From: a virus
Taxonomy: Duplodnaviria > Heunggongvirae > Uroviricota > Caudoviricetes
DNA length: 9,071 nucleotides
IMG/VR virus record: IMGVR_UViG_2654587570_000008
Reading direction: 5' to 3' (one strand)
Made by a program: the position numbers and the translations under genes. Numbering within the stretch: position 1 is the stretch's first letter; every line of letters starts with the position of its first letter. Positions 1-5,748 of the stretch are shown piece by piece. The notes under the pieces were generated by a model that saw nothing but the letters and a program-made list of their open reading frames with translations, was not told the origin of the DNA and did no database searches.

Positions 1-888
1 ATGCCACTGCTGGATAAGCTGCGTGAGCAGTACGGGGTCGGACCGGTATGCAGTGAACTGCATATTGCCCCGTCAACGTATTACCACTGTCAGCAACAGC
101 GACATCATCCTGATAAACGCAGTGCCCGTGCTCAGCGCGATGACTGGCTGAAGAGAGAGATACAGCGCGTATACGATGAAAATCATCAGGTGTACGGTGT
201 GCGTAAAGTCTGGCGCCAGTTGTTACGCGAAGGTATCAGGGTGGCCAGATGTACAGTGGCGCGCCTCATGGCGGTTATGGGACTTGCCGGTGTTCTCCGG
301 GGTAAAAAGGTCCGTACTACCGTCAGCCGGAAAGCCGTTTCCGCATGCGACCGCGTAAACCGTCAGTTCGTGGCAGAACGTCCAGACCAGTTGTGGGTGG
401 CTGATTTTACCTGGGTAAGCACATGGCAGGGCTTCGTTTATGTGGCGTTCATCATTGATGTGTTCGCCGGATACATCGTGGGATGGCAGGTCTCATCATC
501 CATGGAAACAACATTCGTGCTGGATGCACTGGAGCAGGCGTTGTGGGCCCGTCGGCCGTCCGGCACAATCCATCACAGTGATAAAGGTTCTCAGTATGTA
601 TCGCTGGCCTACACGCAGCGGCTTAAGGAAGCCGGATTACTGGCATCAACAGGGAGTACTGGCGACTCGTATGACAACGCGATGGCGGAGAGCATCAATG
701 GTCTTTACAAAGCGGAGGTAATACACCGTAAGAGCTGGAAAAACCGTGCAGAAGTGGAACTGGCCACACTCACGTGGGTGGACTGGTATAACAATCGACG
801 ATTGCTGGAAAGGCTGGGCCATACTCCCCCGGCAGAAGCAGAAAAAGCTTATTATGCTTCCATCGGAAACGATGATCTGGCAGCCTGA
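1..888 (+). CDS. IS3-family transposase OrfB (DDE catalytic subunit)
   Basis: 295-aa ORF running from the window edge. The translation shows the IS3-family integrase-core pattern: D in WVADFTW, D in HHSDKGSQY, E in YDNAMAESINGLYK with K seven residues later. orfA and the frameshift site would lie upstream of position 1. Exact IS name not determinable by eye. Confidence 0.85.
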   Translation: MPLLDKLREQYGVGPVCSELHIAPSTYYHCQQQRHHPDKRSARAQRDDWLKREIQRVYDENHQVYGVRKVWRQLLREGIRVARCTVARLMAVMGLAGVLRGKKVRTTVSRKAVSACDRVNRQFVAERPDQLWVADFTWVSTWQGFVYVAFIIDVFAGYIVGWQVSSSMETTFVLDALEQALWARRPSGTIHHSDKGSQYVSLAYTQRLKEAGLLASTGSTGDSYDNAMAESINGLYKAEVIHRKSWKNRAEVELATLTWVDWYNNRRLLERLGHTPPAEAEKAYYASIGNDDLAA

Positions 889-893
889 GTTCA
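1..893 (+). mobile_element. 3' portion of an IS3-family insertion sequence; right terminus is approximate
   Basis: Contains orfB. IS3-family elements end within a few tens of bp of the orfB stop, usually in ...CA; the first ...TTCA after the stop is at 890-893. The true end could be up to about 60 bp further right, and no partner inverted repeat is available in the window. Confidence 0.55.
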
Positions 894-1312
894 CAGATAA
901 AACACTCTCCAGGAAACCCGGGGCGGTTCAGGCCGCCGGTCGTTATATTCGTTCGCATGAAGCCGTTCAGCACATCAGCATCCGCGACCGGCTGAATGAT
1001 TTTATGCAGCAGCACGGCACAGTACTGGCGGCCGCACTGGCACCGGAGCTGATGGGCTACAGTGAGCTGACGGCCATTGCCCGAAACTGTGCCATACAGC
1101 GTGCCACAGATGCCCTGCGTGAAGCCCTCCTGTCCTGGCTTGCGAAGGGTGAAAAAATTAATTATTCCGCACAGGATAGCGACATTTTAACGGCCATTGG
1201 ATTCAGACCTGACGCGGCTTCGGTGGATGACAGCCGTGAAAAATTCACCCCTGCGCAGAACATGATTTTTTCGCGTAAAAGTGCGCAACTGGCATCACGT
1301 CAGTCTGTGTAA
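894..1312 (+). pseudogene. 5'-truncated remnant of an unknown protein-coding gene, apparently interrupted by the IS3-family element
   Basis: The frame is open from 746 to the TAA at 1310-1312, but its first ~140 nt overlap orfB inside the IS in a different frame. No ATG with a Shine-Dalgarno follows the IS end. Composition is host-like (about 50% G+C by eye). Product not recognised. Confidence 0.35.
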
Positions 1313-1342
1313 AATTCCCCGAAAATCCGCCCGTTTTTACTG

Positions 1343-1376
1343 AAAAAAGCCATGCATCGATAAGGTGCATGGCTTT
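1343..1376. terminator. Candidate bidirectional intrinsic terminator
   Basis: Perfect 9-bp stem AGCCATGCA (1348-1356) / TGCATGGCT (1366-1374) with a 9-nt loop. It is preceded by A6 (1343-1348), giving U6 after the hairpin on the minus strand, and followed by TTT on the plus strand. It lies 35 nt after the stop at 1312. Confidence 0.4.
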
Positions 1377-1403
1377 GCATGCGTTTCCCTGCCTCATTTT
1401 CTG

Positions 1404-1431
1404 CAGACCGCGCCATTCCCGGCGCGGTCTG
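1404..1431. other. Perfect 11-bp GC-rich stem-loop with no adjacent T-tract
   Basis: CAGACCGCGCC (1404-1414) / GGCGCGGTCTG (1421-1431) with loop ATTCCC, inside a GC-rich ORF-free spacer. Function unknown (RNA stabiliser or protein-binding palindrome). Confidence 0.3.
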
Positions 1432-1702
1432 AGCGTGTCAGTGCAACTGCATTAAAACCGCCCCGCAAAGCGGGCGGGCGAGGCGGGGAAAGCACTGCGC
1501 GCCCGGTTGGTGCTCGTTACTAATGTTTTTTGCGCCCGAGCACCGTCGGGAAGGGGCTGGGGGGGGATAGGGGAGGTGCCTGACGTCGCGCGGTAATGTT
1601 GGTAAGTGTGCCGCTGATGGCTTCTGAGGGGAGTGGTAAATAGCCGCCTTTCGACGGTGTAGTGGGGAGAGTATTGCTTACAAACGTAATGAAATTGTTT
1701 GA

Positions 1703-1757
1703 GTAGCTAGGCTACTGCATAGGATTATTTTGTTCTGTTAATATATCCGTTAATATA
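1703..1757 (+). promoter_or_regulatory. Putative promoter/operator region of the two-gene cassette
   Basis: AT-rich block 30-80 bp upstream of the start at 1786/1792. Contains the palindrome GTAGC-TAG-GCTAC (1703-1715), two copies of GTTAATATA (1737-1745, 1749-1757) and weak sigma70-like hexamers (TTGTTC 1730-1735, TAATAT 1751-1756). Spacing is suboptimal, so this is a region call, not a mapped promoter. Confidence 0.3.
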
Positions 1758-1785
1758 GATAGATTGATCCAATTGAGTTTAAGGA

Positions 1786-2175
1786 ATGAGTATGTTTCAG
1801 ATATCAGCTGGAGTGTTCTTTGATTTAGATAAAATAGAAAAACACGATGGCACATTTGTTTTTTATTCAAATGTTGATGTGTCTTTCTCGGTGGAAAACA
1901 CCTCCCCTCTTTTTAAAGCAAATAAAATAAGTCATGATGGTATAAACTGTTATGTGGTAAACTATACTCTCCTGACCGAAAAACCAGAACGAATTGAAGC
2001 TGGAGTCGTAGTTAGGGCTGGTGATGAGGATTATAGGCAACAATTTATTTTATTATGGGAATTCTATTTTGATTGTGTGGCTAGAGTAGAAAAAGAATCG
2101 GTTAAAAAATATGTGCATTATCAAATTTTAATAAACATCACTCAAAAATTGCGCTTGAAGTTGCCCCATATTTAG
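1786..2175 (+). CDS. Hypothetical protein, 129 aa (cassette gene A); start may be the ATG at 1792
   Basis: ORF with an AAGGA Shine-Dalgarno at 1781-1785, better spaced for the ATG at 1792. Strongly AT-rich codon usage. Its TAG stop (2173-2175) shares one base with the GTG start of the next ORF. No recognisable motif or transmembrane segment. Confidence 0.6.
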   Translation: MSMFQISAGVFFDLDKIEKHDGTFVFYSNVDVSFSVENTSPLFKANKISHDGINCYVVNYTLLTEKPERIEAGVVVRAGDEDYRQQFILLWEFYFDCVARVEKESVKKYVHYQILINITQKLRLKLPHI

Positions 2176-3494
2176 TGGAGATTAACCGAAGAGTTTCATT
2201 TGATGATGTCTCTGGGTTTTCTGCTTTTATTAAAGATGTAGTGAATCTAAATAGATCTGCCTTTAAATCTTTAATGGCAGCGTTAAAAATAATTAGTGAT
2301 TCAAAAGAATCATTGTCAACCAACTTTGACCTGACTTATTCCATGTTAGTCTATGCCTTGGAGTCTTTGTCTCAAAGAAATGATAACTATAAGTCTGATT
2401 GGGATGACTACGATCAAAAAACCAGAGGTGAATTAGAGTCTGTATTTGAGCATATGCCTGGTGAGGATGTTTGTAAAATTAAATCAATACTTATTGAAGG
2501 CAAACAATTCAGATTACAAAAAAGGTTCAAAGATTTTATACTGAAAAATCTTGAAGAAAATTATTTCAATGAAACAGAGAGATATCCAATCCGCTATAGC
2601 TTCCTTAGTAGAGCTTTAGATAATTTATACAAAATCAGGTCTTCTTTTGTCCATGAGCTTAAGCCACTTGATGCAATGATCTCGAAAGCCTACAATCCTG
2701 TTGGTGATTGTCTGGTTCTTTTTGGCGAACCTCACTTCAGTTACTCTGGATTGCTTCGACTTCTTCGCCATGTGATAATAAATTTTTGCCGTAAAAACTA
2801 CAGTCAAAAAAGAGAGTATGTTAATTGGGTGATGGAAACATCGGGTGTAATGGTTGCAGAGATATCTGCACAATATTGGCTCTGGAATGCAGACGGATTT
2901 ACAGCTAAAAGTATAGCGAAGTGGTTTAGTGAATACCTAAATATGTTAAATTTAGGCGAAGTCACTGATTTGCAGTCTATCATGGACAAAATTGAGATAA
3001 TCTATGACCAATCCAAAAAAGAATATAAAAATGGGTTGTTGTATTTTTATTTCTTATATAACTTAATGCATAATGGAAATAAGGGTGAATGGCTTGAGTT
3101 TGCGAACAAGCGAAGTTCTATACTTGTTTGTGATATATATTGGTATTCATGCTCTCCATATTTATATAAATCATTTACTAATGTTTCAAATGGTATTGCT
3201 GATATAAAAACATTGAGAAACTTTTTGTCTTGTTTTAACGAATATGATAAAAATAAATTTAAGCCAAATCGTTTAAATCTCCCTGCAATGACCGAAGTAA
3301 TTATGTTGGCTTGCGCAGCAAATTCATTCTTCAGAATTGGAATGTATCAAGACTATGTTTTAATGGGCAATAGAGCGATGAGAGAAATTGCTTCAGTAAA
3401 AGATGTATTTTATTATATAAAAGAACGATTAAGTAATTCACAACTTATTGAATTGGACGAGTGCTTGAGATTGTATAGAAAAAAGGGGGGCTAA
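2175..3494 (+). CDS. Hypothetical protein, 439 aa (cassette gene B); possible HEPN-like Rx4H motif, unverified
   Basis: Long uninterrupted ORF in AT-rich DNA. It starts with GTG overlapping the upstream stop (TAGTG) and its stop TAA (3492-3494) overlaps the integrase stop. Contains R-SSFV-H at residues 155-160 (nt 2637-2654). No Walker A motif or transmembrane helix seen. Confidence 0.65.
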   Translation: MEINRRVSFDDVSGFSAFIKDVVNLNRSAFKSLMAALKIISDSKESLSTNFDLTYSMLVYALESLSQRNDNYKSDWDDYDQKTRGELESVFEHMPGEDVCKIKSILIEGKQFRLQKRFKDFILKNLEENYFNETERYPIRYSFLSRALDNLYKIRSSFVHELKPLDAMISKAYNPVGDCLVLFGEPHFSYSGLLRLLRHVIINFCRKNYSQKREYVNWVMETSGVMVAEISAQYWLWNADGFTAKSIAKWFSEYLNMLNLGEVTDLQSIMDKIEIIYDQSKKEYKNGLLYFYFLYNLMHNGNKGEWLEFANKRSSILVCDIYWYSCSPYLYKSFTNVSNGIADIKTLRNFLSCFNEYDKNKFKPNRLNLPAMTEVIMLACAANSFFRIGMYQDYVLMGNRAMREIASVKDVFYYIKERLSNSQLIELDECLRLYRKKGG

Positions 3495-3510
3495 CCCCTT
3501 TTATTTTTAA
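3483..3510. terminator. Candidate bidirectional terminator at the convergent gene ends
   Basis: Short GC stem GGGG (3487-3490) / CCCC (3495-3498) with loop CTAA, flanked by AAAA upstream and TTTTATTTTT downstream, so a U-tract follows the hairpin on both strands. The stem is short, so strength is doubtful. Confidence 0.35.
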
Positions 3511-4687
3511 CGTATTCACCCCACCAATCCATCAATTCAATTCGCTGCACGAGATAAGTAGAACGATTGTATGCTTTTCTAACTTCATTTTTATCACTGT
3601 GGGCTAAGGCAGACTCGATAACATCAGGATTTAATCCAGCTTCATTCATGGCTGTACTTGCTATTGAACGTAATCCATGGGCAACTAATTTTCCGCCAAA
3701 ACCAATACGTTTTAAAGCTGCATTTGCAGTCTGACTGTTCATTGGTTTCTTTGGGTCATTCCGACTCGGAAAAACATATTCACGATGAGCACTAATAGGC
3801 TTCATCACATTAAGAATCTCTAATGCCTGAGATGATAGAGGAATTATGTGTTCCCGTTTAGCCTTCATCCGTTCGGCAGGAATCGTCCAGAGCTTTGCAT
3901 GAAGATCGATTTCTTCCCACCGAGTACTGGAGGCTTCAGAAGGGCGCACAAGAGTCAGGAGTTGCCATTCAATTAGACAGCGAGTCGGGATAGACAGATT
4001 TGACATGACTAAAGAACGCATCAGCTTTGGTAATTCTTCAGGTCGAAGCGTCGGCATGTTTTGTTTTTTTGGCTTTTCGAAGGCCATGCCAACACCTGAT
4101 GCTGGGTTTGCATCAATCAAGCCAGTGTTAACCGCATAAATCATTATTTCGTTAATGCGTTGCACCAGACGACGTACAGTCTCTAATGCCCCACGAGCTT
4201 TGACTGGCTCAAGTGCTTCGACCAATGTTCTAGCTTTGATCTGCTGAACGGGCATCTCACCAACGGCGGGGAATACATCTTTTTCCAATGAGCGCCAAAT
4301 ATCTTTTGCATAATCAGGGGTAACACTTTTGCTTTTGAGCTGAAACCAATTAGCGGCGACCGTCGAGAAAATACTGTCCTGTGCGATTTGCTGCTGTTCC
4401 TCTGCAATTTCAGCTTGAATTTGCGGGTCAATTCCGTTGGCTAACAAGGAAAGGTAATCCGCTCTTAAGCGTCGGGCGTCAGCAAGTGAAAGGGCTGGGA
4501 AGGCTCCTAGCCCCATCATTGTCCGTTGCTTTGTTGCCGGACGTTGATAACGGAAACGCCATAACTTCTTACCGTTCGTTTTAACGAGTAGAAAAAGACC
4601 ATCGCCATCATGCAACGTTAGATCCTTTTCTAACGCTTTAGCGCGCAGTACTTCTGTGTTGGTCAGGGGGCGTGTCGTTCTTGCCAA
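3491..4687 (-). CDS. intA: P4-type (IntA-like) tyrosine integrase, site-specific recombinase
   Basis: 398-aa ORF. The N-terminus MARTTRPLT...DGDGLFLLV...KLWRFRY is typical of P4-family integrases, and the C-terminal catalytic region carries AHGLRSIAST (H-x-x-R) and a terminal Tyr in NRSTYL. It sits directly downstream of a tmRNA 3'-end att core, as intA does next to ssrA in E. coli K-12 CP4-57. Start codon is TTG (4685-4687) with an AAGGAG Shine-Dalgarno 8 nt upstream. Confidence 0.9.
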   Translation of the reverse strand: MARTTRPLTNTEVLRAKALEKDLTLHDGDGLFLLVKTNGKKLWRFRYQRPATKQRTMMGLGAFPALSLADARRLRADYLSLLANGIDPQIQAEIAEEQQQIAQDSIFSTVAANWFQLKSKSVTPDYAKDIWRSLEKDVFPAVGEMPVQQIKARTLVEALEPVKARGALETVRRLVQRINEIMIYAVNTGLIDANPASGVGMAFEKPKKQNMPTLRPEELPKLMRSLVMSNLSIPTRCLIEWQLLTLVRPSEASSTRWEEIDLHAKLWTIPAERMKAKREHIIPLSSQALEILNVMKPISAHREYVFPSRNDPKKPMNSQTANAALKRIGFGGKLVAHGLRSIASTAMNEAGLNPDVIESALAHSDKNEVRKAYNRSTYLVQRIELMDWWGEYVKNKRG

Positions 4688-4706
4688 TTTGGCCGCTCCT
4701 TCATGA

Positions 4707-4760
4707 ATTGGTATACGCGTTTAGGTATACATCCTACCGTATACCTAAACGTATACCAAT
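4707..4760 (-). promoter_or_regulatory. Long near-perfect inverted repeat upstream of the integrase start (candidate operator or integrase-regulatory site)
   Basis: Left arm ATTGGTATACGCGTTTAGGTATAC (4707-4730) and right arm GTATACCTAAACGTATACCAAT (4739-4760) are reverse complements apart from a 2-nt indel. They carry four GTATAC palindromic cores and lie about 20 bp upstream of the integrase Shine-Dalgarno. Confidence 0.4.
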
Positions 4761-4802
4761 AATCACTGGATTTAGCTGGATATCCTCGGACAACGGTAGA
4801 CA

Positions 4803-4838
4803 CAAAAAAGCCCGCAGAGCTTGTGCTATGCGGGCTTT
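4803..4838 (-). terminator. Intrinsic terminator on the minus strand, downstream of the tmRNA-end remnant
   Basis: Perfect 8-bp stem AGCCCGCA (4809-4816) / TGCGGGCT (4829-4836) with a 12-nt loop. On the minus strand the hairpin is followed by U6 (complement of A 4804-4809). Confidence 0.5.
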
Positions 4839-4871
4839 CAGGATTTCTCCGGACGTATCCGGAAGAGCAAG

Positions 4872-4907
4872 TGGTGGAGCTGGCGGGAGTTGAACCCGTG
4901 TCTGAAA
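4872..4907 (-). other. Attachment-site remnant: 3'-terminal ~36 nt of a tmRNA (ssrA) gene, without the gene body
   Basis: The reverse complement of 4872-4898 reads CGGGTTCAACTCCCGCCAGCTCCACCA, the T-arm/acceptor 3' end of E. coli tmRNA as I recall it. Similarity continues with 2 mismatches to about 4907 and is then lost in AT-rich DNA, so this is a junction core, not an intact gene. Confidence 0.7.
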
Positions 4908-4936
4908 AATATTAACCTGTTGTTTTAATTATATAT

Positions 4937-5404
4937 TTATCTGAACATGGCGTTTGCGGCGCTTTTGCGTATCTTCTCTAGACCTTTTGTAGTCCATTTC
5001 TCTGGTACAGGTGTAAACCGTAGTGCAAAATCTGCCTCCATATTATCACCACTGAAACGTGCCACTCCACGTTCCAATTTTGTTTGCCAAGTGACTTTTT
5101 TAGTTTTACCCTCTATATCTTGATATTCAATAATTAATTTTGGACCAGTGAATGATGAAGAACCGACTAATTTAAGTCTATGTGAAAGATATGCTATATT
5201 CAATAGAATATCAATTGCCGCGGTTGGTACAAAAATGTTTTTTGACTTCTTATCTATACTATATGGTAACGAAAAATCAATATCGTAAGGTGTCGATAAA
5301 GTATTGTACATATATACTTTTCTTTCTTTTATTATTTTGAATATTCCATACTGGGAGTCGGTTGTAAAAGATTTATCTTCTTTTTTGAATTTTTTCGAAA
5401 ACAA
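4937..5404 (-). CDS. Hypothetical protein, 155 aa; probably the C-terminal part of a frameshifted membrane-anchored protein gene
   Basis: AT-rich ORF with no ATG (first start candidate is TTG at 5402-5404), lying 14 nt downstream of the preceding ORF in the -1 frame. No recognised domain. Confidence 0.45.
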   Translation of the reverse strand: MFSKKFKKEDKSFTTDSQYGIFKIIKERKVYMYNTLSTPYDIDFSLPYSIDKKSKNIFVPTAAIDILLNIAYLSHRLKLVGSSSFTGPKLIIEYQDIEGKTKKVTWQTKLERGVARFSGDNMEADFALRFTPVPEKWTTKGLEKIRKSAANAMFR

Positions 5405-5418
5405 CTCTAAATATAGAT

Positions 5419-5715
5419 TTATGTTTTTTTATAATTAAAATCCCAATGATATCTAAGTGAAATTGCCGCCCCCAATCCTATGTTTGAAAATTTTGTTTGT
5501 GGAAGCGTAGGGGCTTGTAAGATATCAACATGAAAACCGTTGAAATCGTTAACATTCATCTTGATATTTAAAGTGTCTATCACTAAATTGGGTTTATAAG
5601 AGAGCCTTCTTTGAAATATCGTTAACCATATTGCATATAATGCAGCAATTGCTGAAATGAAAGTACCAACTGAAGATATGTAGGTGATTAGTTTGTCGAA
5701 TGTAATTGTAATCAA
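5419..5715 (-). CDS. Hypothetical protein, 98 aa, with an N-terminal transmembrane helix; probably the N-terminal part of a frameshifted gene
   Basis: AT-rich ORF with a hydrophobic segment ITYISSVGTFISAIAALYAIWLTIF near the N-terminus. TTG start (5713-5715) preceded by GGGGA. Ends in TAA just after an A7 run on the coding strand (T7 at 5424-5430 on plus). Confidence 0.5.
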   Translation of the reverse strand: MITITFDKLITYISSVGTFISAIAALYAIWLTIFQRRLSYKPNLVIDTLNIKMNVNDFNGFHVDILQAPTLPQTKFSNIGLGAAISLRYHWDFNYKKT

Positions 5716-5720
5716 CTTTA

Positions 5721-5748
5721 AATCCCCGATTTTAAAAATGCGGGGATT
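5721..5748 (-). promoter_or_regulatory. Stem-loop immediately downstream of int that includes the Shine-Dalgarno of the next gene
   Basis: Perfect 8-bp stem AATCCCCG (5721-5728) / CGGGGATT (5741-5748) with a 12-nt AT-rich loop. It lies between the int stop (5757) and the downstream ORF start (5715); the GGGGA Shine-Dalgarno is part of the stem. Confidence 0.3.

Follow-up and report, generated by a model that had tools for sequence, protein, structure and literature searches.

Features of the locus

The window (the whole stretch of 9,071 nucleotides that was analysed) comprises two groups of mobile-element genes, those of a satellite on the left and those of a temperate phage on the right, which meet at a short copy of the 3′ end of the tmRNA gene ssrA (Table 1). 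That an orphan 3′ core of ssrA joins two integrative elements at this position had been proposed earlier from the letters alone (in the following, the sequence-only reading), and the presence of a separate tyrosine integrase on each side of the core bears this out. Comparison sequences are cited by L numbers where coordinates are given or where individual copies have to be told apart.

Table 1. Features of the window in order of position.
Feature	Position	Strand	Evidence or remark
IS3-family element, 3′ part (IS1203-like), orfB transposase	1–927	+	Pfam rve, HTH_21
psu (polarity suppression) 3′ remnant, cut by IS	928–1312	+	phrog_6366 Psu, profile positions 65–190 only
psu-int hotspot cargo gene, 567 aa in L002 (WP_088551761.1)	1792–3494	+	33% G+C
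Satellite P4-type (IntA-like) tyrosine integrase, 398 aa	3491–4687	−	Pfam Arm-DNA-bind_3, Phage_int_M, Phage_integrase
Palindrome of GGTATACG-N-AGGTATAC units	4707–4760		Inverted repeats upstream of satellite int
Intrinsic terminator, 14-bp GC-rich stem and U run	4804–4838	−	Satellite-borne
Small hairpin	4847–4860		Minus-strand reading
ssrA 3′-end copy, 27 nt exact	4872–4898	−	Identical to annotated ssrA of L002, L003, L013, L014
tmRNA-like extension, 9 nt	4899–4907	−	Mismatches at 4899 and 4903; phage-derived, on the phage side of the predicted crossover
AT-rich int-proximal arm of phage att site	4908–4936		Same in L001, L004, L007–L012, whatever the flank opposite
Phage cargo gene, 259 aa in relatives, function unknown	4937–5716	−	phrog_7259; between int and attP
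Phage tyrosine integrase, 390 aa	5757–6929	−	Pfam Arm-DNA-bind_2, Phage_int_SAM_5, Phage_integrase
Excisionase, 72 aa	6890–7108	−	phrog_2917, E = 1.6e-45
Early-left genes: phrog_1226, DUF551 protein, YfdR-type 5′-deoxynucleotidase	7156–8338	−	Pfam, phrog profiles

A fragment of ssrA at the junction

The minus strand of 4872–4907 reads TTTCAGACACGGGTTCAACTCCCGCCAGCTCCACCA, and the 3′ end of E. coli ssrA reads TTTCGGACGCGGGTTCAACTCCCGCCAGCTCCACCA in the annotated tmRNA genes of the strains NS-NP030 (L002), GPEC1209 (L003), K-12 (L013) and C1 (L014). All 27 nucleotides of the block that ends in the CCA agree with these genes, as do 34 of the 36 nucleotides overall. The coordinates, the sequence and the mismatch count given in the sequence-only reading proved exact in this comparison with four annotated genes, and similarity to tmRNA indeed extends with two mismatches to about 4907 and is gone upstream of this position. 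The identical block takes in the acceptor 3′ strand with the CCA and the larger part of the T-arm, that is, the 5′ strand of the T-stem (three of the four retained pairs' worth), the T-loop, the 3′ strand of the T-stem and the 3′ strand of the acceptor. With up to three mismatches allowed, the 36-mer occurs at a single site in the whole window, and none of 200 dinucleotide-preserving shuffles yielded a match to it.

ARAGORN detected neither a tmRNA nor a tRNA in the window, and the Rfam tmRNA model RF00023 reached 18 bits with a gathering score of 47. The absence of a tmRNA body to the right of the core, which had been read from the letters, is in agreement with both results; a functional tmRNA with tRNA-like domain, pseudoknots and tag reading frame was found in the window by neither of the two. 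The sequence at 4872–4907 is a fragment of ssrA and not a gene, and its 27-nt block is the att core common to both elements. Judged by the Islander criteria for tDNA fragments at island ends (PMC4383910), the core provides a 3′ tDNA fragment that significantly matches the gene, and the integrase within the interval between the tDNA and the fragment is that of the phage, with xis adjoining. A 73-aa open reading frame on the plus strand (4672–4893), which runs over the core, was set aside as a mechanical ORF; it crosses both the terminator and the tmRNA fragment.

The prophage to the right

The DNA to the right of the core is AT-rich and of phage origin, as had been stated before: the segment 4908–5756 has a G+C-content of 31.6% (the same figure holds for the 259-aa cargo gene) compared with 44–47% in the adjoining integrase genes, and is followed by int, xis and early genes of a phage. 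The phage int is transcribed toward the core, from which it is 850 nt away. In the window the phrog_7259 gene is split into open reading frames of 155 and 98 aa by the loss of one T from a run of eight (around 5417–5424), as seen against L001 and L004.

A protein search found the phages LLS and phiNP as relatives of the phage integrase, which is 86–92% identical to the integrases of LLS, phiNP and Kp4866-6. In a megablast search against sequenced phages, the DNA from about 7325 rightwards was 95–96% identical to SfV, SfII, SfIV and others; for the int-att module the same search yielded no near-identical sequenced phage, all matches starting only at about 7325. The window reaches 4.2 kb into the prophage, ending at 9071, and itself contains only int, xis and the early-left genes of the lambdoid/SfV-e14 set, the rest of which is found in L001, L003, L004 and L014. 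In E. coli GPEC1209 and C1 the phage segment runs on into a complete temperate phage. The sequence of C1, in which the prophage is complete, is 99.4% identical to the window over 4797–8975. The control region of these relatives encodes the LexA-family repressor YmfK, YmfT, YmfL, RusA, a Q antiterminator and a lambda-family holin, and their structural region comprises an HK97-type head and a contractile tail, with baseplate genes, pinE and invertible fibre genes. The term lambdoid, which had been used for this prophage, is appropriate for its regulatory and early region, but not for the tails of the relatives, which are contractile and of the SfV/e14 type. With a size of about 40 kb, the right-hand element is very probably a temperate phage of the SfV/e14-like kind.

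In this phage family, cargo slots occupy both ends that adjoin attP. The ssrA-proximal slot of GPEC1209 (L003, 11673–15526) encodes a type II restriction enzyme, a Dcm-type methylase and a GIY-YIG protein, and the slot between int and attP of phiNP (L005, 4171–6900) contains an AAA ATPase, separated from the tmRNA fragment by about 1 kb of DNA that has no annotation. Rfam gave a sub-threshold match to STnc100 (42.1 bits; threshold 47) at 8469–8683 on the minus strand, within the early region of the phage in the window. This stretch overlaps a 101-aa open reading frame for which relatives annotate a frameshifted hypothetical gene. Being below threshold and having no bearing on the core, the match was set aside.

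The satellite to the left

Read on the minus strand, the CCA end of the core is followed by the small hairpin, the terminator, the palindrome and the P4-type int. The last three of these had been recognised correctly in the sequence-only reading. The integrase matches NCBIfam PRK09692 with 591 bits, and 238 of 413 residues (58%) are identical to IntA from K-12. The GGTATACG-N(1–5)-AGGTATAC unit forms an inverted pair next to this gene, where all four GGTATAC heptamers of the window are located, and a third copy is found where the satellite of GPEC1209 has its far end, attR (L001, 13132–13150). The palindrome probably consists of arm-type Int sites or forms an int operator.

In NS-NP030 (L002), DNA that is 99.9% identical to window positions 928–4907 is joined straight to an intact ssrA, so that the flank with the terminator stands directly 3′ of the gene; the alignment begins inside psu. 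Where the satellite directly adjoins ssrA in this manner, its terminator would be the one that ends the gene. Three different P4-type islands (those of the window, L004 and K-12, L013) possess a similar terminator, AAGCCCGCAyrGCrCAAGCyCTGCGGGCTTTTTT, 40–75 nt past the CCA, and this shared terminator is distinct from the native one of ssrA. An Rfam match to IsrM (31 bits; threshold 376) was rejected, as it consists of the terminator hairpin only. The match hints at an origin of the 3′ end of Salmonella IsrM from such an island arm.

The cargo gene in the psu-int hotspot appears in the window as open reading frames of 129 and 439 aa, one A being lost from a run of seven (around 2098–2104). PADLOC reported for its product a weak match to Cas13-ApeA (7e-6, residues 148–273), and searches of Pfam, NCBIfam and PDB yielded nothing for this 567-aa protein. 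For the two cargo proteins of the window taken together, the weak ApeA-like match was the only result from Pfam, NCBIfam, PDB and PADLOC. The gene for the 567-aa protein may be a so far uncharacterised defence gene with a HEPN-like product. Both cargo genes in this 9-kb window have lost a nucleotide from a homopolymer run, which suggests either sequencing error or, possibly, slippage-type switching.

The insertion sequence at the left end carries an ALIL frameshift pseudoknot (1–72; Rfam, 60.5 bits), and the matching region of an E. coli genome is annotated as IS1203. The satellite is probably defective through this insertion in psu, of which the C-terminal two-thirds are left. From the P4-like core set (int, psu, delta, sid, alpA, epsilon and the alpha primase) the window contains int and the psu remnant. 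Further along, relatives with the same int flank encode ogr/Delta-like, derepression and Icd-like proteins and an HTH regulator, and a primase-helicase is present in GPEC1209; no gene named sid occurs among the satellite genes of these relatives. The left-hand element is very probably a P4-like satellite.

The native site and the origin of the left flank

The 3′ half of ssrA was combined with the DNA that GPEC1209 carries past the far end of its satellite, and the resulting test sequence runs without a break in 709 of 5426 complete E. coli genomes, with 100% identity among the matches listed. These genomes provide the uninterrupted site as it is defined in TIGER. In this empty site ssrA is followed by ATCATGATTGG... 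(also ATCATGATTGGACGG...), and the native sequence after the CCA, ATCATGATTGGACGGTG..., ends in a different terminator, AAAGCCCGCTGATGCGGGCTTTTTT.

In the window, the CCA is followed by CTTGCTCTTCCGG.... The sequence-only reading had taken this left flank for native DNA downstream of ssrA. This idea has to be abandoned, since the native site continues with ATCATGATTGGACGG... and the other terminator; the flank is the satellite's own att arm. Three observations argue for its being satellite-borne. Firstly, a copy of the GGTATAC unit is also present at the opposite end of the satellite, and such a placement at both ends is what would be expected for Int sites on both arms of attP. Secondly, CP4-57 and the C1 island have unrelated sequences after the CCA, with a similar terminator at the same distance. 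Thirdly, the left boundary that RefSeq gives for CP4-57 falls inside ssrA, 15 nt from its end. The K-12-like order of ssrA, terminator and intA was rightly seen in the sequence-only reading; compared with K-12, the sequence after the CCA is unrelated except for the terminator.

At the far end of the satellite in L001, a degenerate fragment, TTCAAACTCCGCCAGC--CCA, lies beside native DNA. Both integrases of the presumed tandem array are in the window, where the core is the tDNA fragment that belongs to the phage. The far junction itself (L001, 13055–13080) reads TTCAAACTCCGCCAGC-CCAATCATG and is 4 nt shorter than the clean recombinant CCAGCTCCACCAATCATG; it may be a decayed attR which blocks excision.

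Intact ssrA in relatives and the phage attachment site

In GPEC1209 and C1, intact smpB-ssrA lies 40.2 kb and 41.2 kb, respectively, to the right of the core and in the same orientation. In these two relatives, which share the arm and the core, the intact gene stands past the far end of the prophage, as the sequence-only reading had expected; in the genome from which the window derives, ssrA would be located correspondingly. In both relatives the gene is followed by about 155 nt which are 93% identical to the native downstream sequence, including the terminator, and then by phage DNA. Copies of this native-like stretch are located at L003 15570–15760, L014 7848–8020 and L006 5093–5250. As the free phage LLS carries GAATTACGGGCGC-GGGTTCAACTCCCGCCAGCTCCACCA-ATCATGATTGG...terminator, the stretch is phage-borne. 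An attP which holds a copy of the ssrA 3′ end and of the terminator implies that integration swaps both for the phage versions. The homology of attP to attB reaches far past the tmRNA gene. An IS3 element has inserted into the terminator of the 155-nt copy in strain C1.

The two junctions of the prophage differ from each other. The distal junctions (in the window, L001, L004 and six IMG/VR contigs) read TTTCAGACAC, and the intact ssrA of the same genomes reads TTTCGGACGC, so that within one and the same genome the ssrA-proximal junction is wild-type (GGACGC) and the distal one phage-type (AGACAC). This combination places the strand exchange 3′ of 4899; as the CCA end sets the limit on the other side, the exchange in the window must fall inside the 27-nt block. 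Integrase subfamilies reportedly prefer particular sublocations within such genes, and in view of this preference the T-loop with the flanking arms of the T-stem is the likely overlap region. A search of the reconstructed attP for arm-type repeats of the phage Int found one 10-mer pair at −102/+93, which is within chance expectation.

Recurrence of the junction and order of integration

The exact composite junction of the window is present in 9 of 5426 complete E. coli genomes, which argues for a real, recurrent structure and against an assembly artefact. No complete E. coli genome covers at least 80% of the window, and an exact-pattern scan of the GTDB species representatives did not reveal the junction in any of them. 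One phage arm with the core is combined with four different left flanks, and in all cases the sequences diverge exactly past the CCA. These flanks are the satellite of the window type (window, L001), the C1-type island (L004, L007), CP4-57 (L009–L011) and native or native-like DNA (L008, L012). Core and phage arm are unmutated in the window relative to eight other copies.

The site is very probably an internal att junction within a tandem array of two integrative elements at E. coli ssrA. Two orders of assembly yield the observed structure, namely integration of the phage into an intact ssrA or integration of the satellite into the distal core. As the core is identical in all copies, it gives no signal for the order. 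The sequence-only reading had let the phage arrive second and displace the fragment next to an older island; the structure fits this course of events, but the reverse history results in the same structure. After integration, a core is again present on each side of the inserted element, and either of the two may become the target of a further element (PMC7192596). It is possible, if rather unlikely, that the phage first entered an unoccupied ssrA and that the P4-like satellite then inserted into the distal orphan core, in which case the fragment was never displaced. The 27-nt core does contain the P4-type segment CCGCCAGC...CCA, as delimited by the CP4-57 boundary in K-12 and by the satellite attR in L001, and the phage alone at an otherwise empty site does exist (in L008 the distal core is followed by native DNA). 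However, three different P4-type islands are found next to one and the same phage arm; two of them (the window type in L002 and CP4-57 in K-12) are also joined straight to an intact ssrA without the phage, and the window-type flank together with the core is annotated as ssrA in many further genomes. One mobile phage that enters several island backgrounds is more parsimonious than three islands each picking the distal copy. Moreover, the satellite looks old and decayed, with psu cut by an insertion sequence and the cargo gene frameshifted. For these reasons of parsimony and decay, integration of the phage as the second element is somewhat favoured over later arrival of the satellite.

Considerably less probable is the idea that the junction is a relic scar left by one or both elements being dead, with a truncated prophage and no ssrA linked to the core via a complete element. 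Signs of decay are indeed present: the insertion in psu, the 1-nt homopolymer deletions in both cargo genes and a satellite attR in a relative that falls 4 nt short of the clean recombinant, to which may be added that the whole window is matched by no complete genome. Yet both integrase reading frames and xis are full length and match RefSeq proteins end to end, over 4.2 kb the phage segment shows 99.4% identity with the complete prophage of C1, and the core with the phage arm has accumulated no mutation with respect to the eight other copies; sequencing error may account for the homopolymer deletions. A chance or convergent tRNA-like match, or a chimeric assembly without any att site, is already refuted: the match is only 36 nt long, but it is absent from all 200 shuffles, the identical composite junction occurs in nine independent complete genomes and both flanks are recombination modules.

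Proposed arrangement and mechanism

For a tandem array at ssrA, the order in the sense of the tmRNA would be the intact ssrA beyond the right end of the window, the phage of about 40 kb, the core (4907–4872) and the P4-like satellite. The phage would present xis, int and one cargo gene (7108–4937) toward the core. The satellite would continue after it with its own terminator, the palindrome of Int sites, the IntA-type int, the hotspot cargo and the IS-truncated psu. The phage attP would be made up of the last 36 or so nucleotides of ssrA (with the two mismatches) and about 155 nt of native downstream sequence with the terminator. Assuming that the integrase is active, it would exchange strands within the 27-nt block of identity, most probably at the T-loop. 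The chromosomal ssrA would in this way keep a wild-type 3′ end, then supplied by the phage, and the int-proximal end of the prophage would be left with a hybrid of the phage-type TTTCAGACA and the common core. The crossover of the satellite, if its integrase is active as well, would take place nearer to the 3′ end, in CCGCCAGC...CCA, which agrees with the RefSeq boundary of CP4-57. The 27-nt core would hold the sites of both integrases, which would use overlapping parts of it, and serve as the int-proximal att of the phage and as the ssrA-side att of the satellite. The attP of an excised phage circle, for which a PCR had been suggested, would be expected to read ...AATATTTTTCAGACAC-core-ATCATGATTGG....

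A much more far-reaching proposal starts from these overlapping targets of two unrelated integrases and has the array resolve in several ways; a separate part of it takes the AT-rich cargo genes on either side of the junction for slippage-switched anti-phage genes. The proposal is very improbable. If it were true, the phage alone, the satellite alone or both as one composite could excise, in the last case through the action of the satellite Int at the intact ssrA and at the satellite's far end. In that event a P4-like satellite would travel or recombine as a unit with a non-P2 phage, and the 567-aa hotspot protein with its weak ApeA-like signal and the 259-aa phrog_7259 protein would be uncharacterised anti-phage genes.

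Practical relevance

The junction implies no new biology, and its value is mainly practical. The core supplies base-precise boundaries for two mobile elements, which is of use where the hypervariable ssrA-glaH region of E. coli is annotated or compared between genomes. In addition, each incoming element brings a replacement 3′ end and terminator. What is called the ssrA terminator in reference strains such as K-12 is for this reason that of the resident island and not of the chromosome, which corrects a common assumption.

Comparison with known systems

The window phage resembles two sequenced phages at its attachment site. The Escherichia phage LLS (PQ299149; Int 86% identical) shows the same order of xis, int, cargo slot and tmRNA 3′ fragment. 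In the LLS record, the first gene downstream of int is followed by a "tmRNA pseudogene" and attP, both annotated by the depositors, and then by native-like downstream sequence and terminator. The Citrobacter phage phiNP (OR565852; Int 92% identical) likewise has a tmRNA 3′ fragment downstream of int. The cargo slot differs, being occupied by gp31 in LLS and by the AAA ATPase with further unannotated DNA in phiNP, and the degenerate part of the tmRNA fragment reads GAATTACGGGCGC in LLS but TTTCAGACAC in the window. Unlike these two phages, the remainder of the window phage is SfV-like.

The satellite is comparable to CP4-57 of K-12, an island which is situated directly 3′ of ssrA, supplies the last nucleotides of the gene together with a terminator some 50–75 nt further on and carries a P4-type int in the same orientation. 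In contrast to CP4-57, the window satellite has an integrase with 58% identity to IntA and a flank after the CCA which is unrelated except for the terminator; it is a recognisable P4-like satellite (psu in the window, delta and primase in relatives), and a prophage lies between it and ssrA. P4 itself integrates at a tRNA-Leu gene. The window satellite differs from P4 in being located at ssrA, in its IS-truncated psu and in a cargo gene that reads as frameshifted. P4-like satellites with a defence hotspot between psu and int have been described (PMC9122126, PMC8628076), and the layout of int, variable AT-rich cargo, psu and delta is shared by the window satellite, whose cargo has a G+C-content of 33% and no known domains.

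The closest likeness is to tandem arrays at tDNAs. In such arrays an intact tDNA stands at one end, which is here represented by the ssrA of the relatives, and every element comes with a tyrosine integrase of its own and with a 3′ piece of the tDNA that has been displaced but keeps the orientation of the gene; the piece between two neighbours marks their boundary. Different integrase families use different sublocations, as appears to be the case in the window. An arrangement of this kind has reportedly been described for the tmRNA gene by Williams (2003). No difference in kind separates the window from these arrays; specific to it is the pairing of an SfV-like phage with a P4-like satellite, found in 9 of 5426 complete genomes. 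The structure is very probably an ordinary, textbook tandem island array at the tmRNA gene and as such already known in kind.
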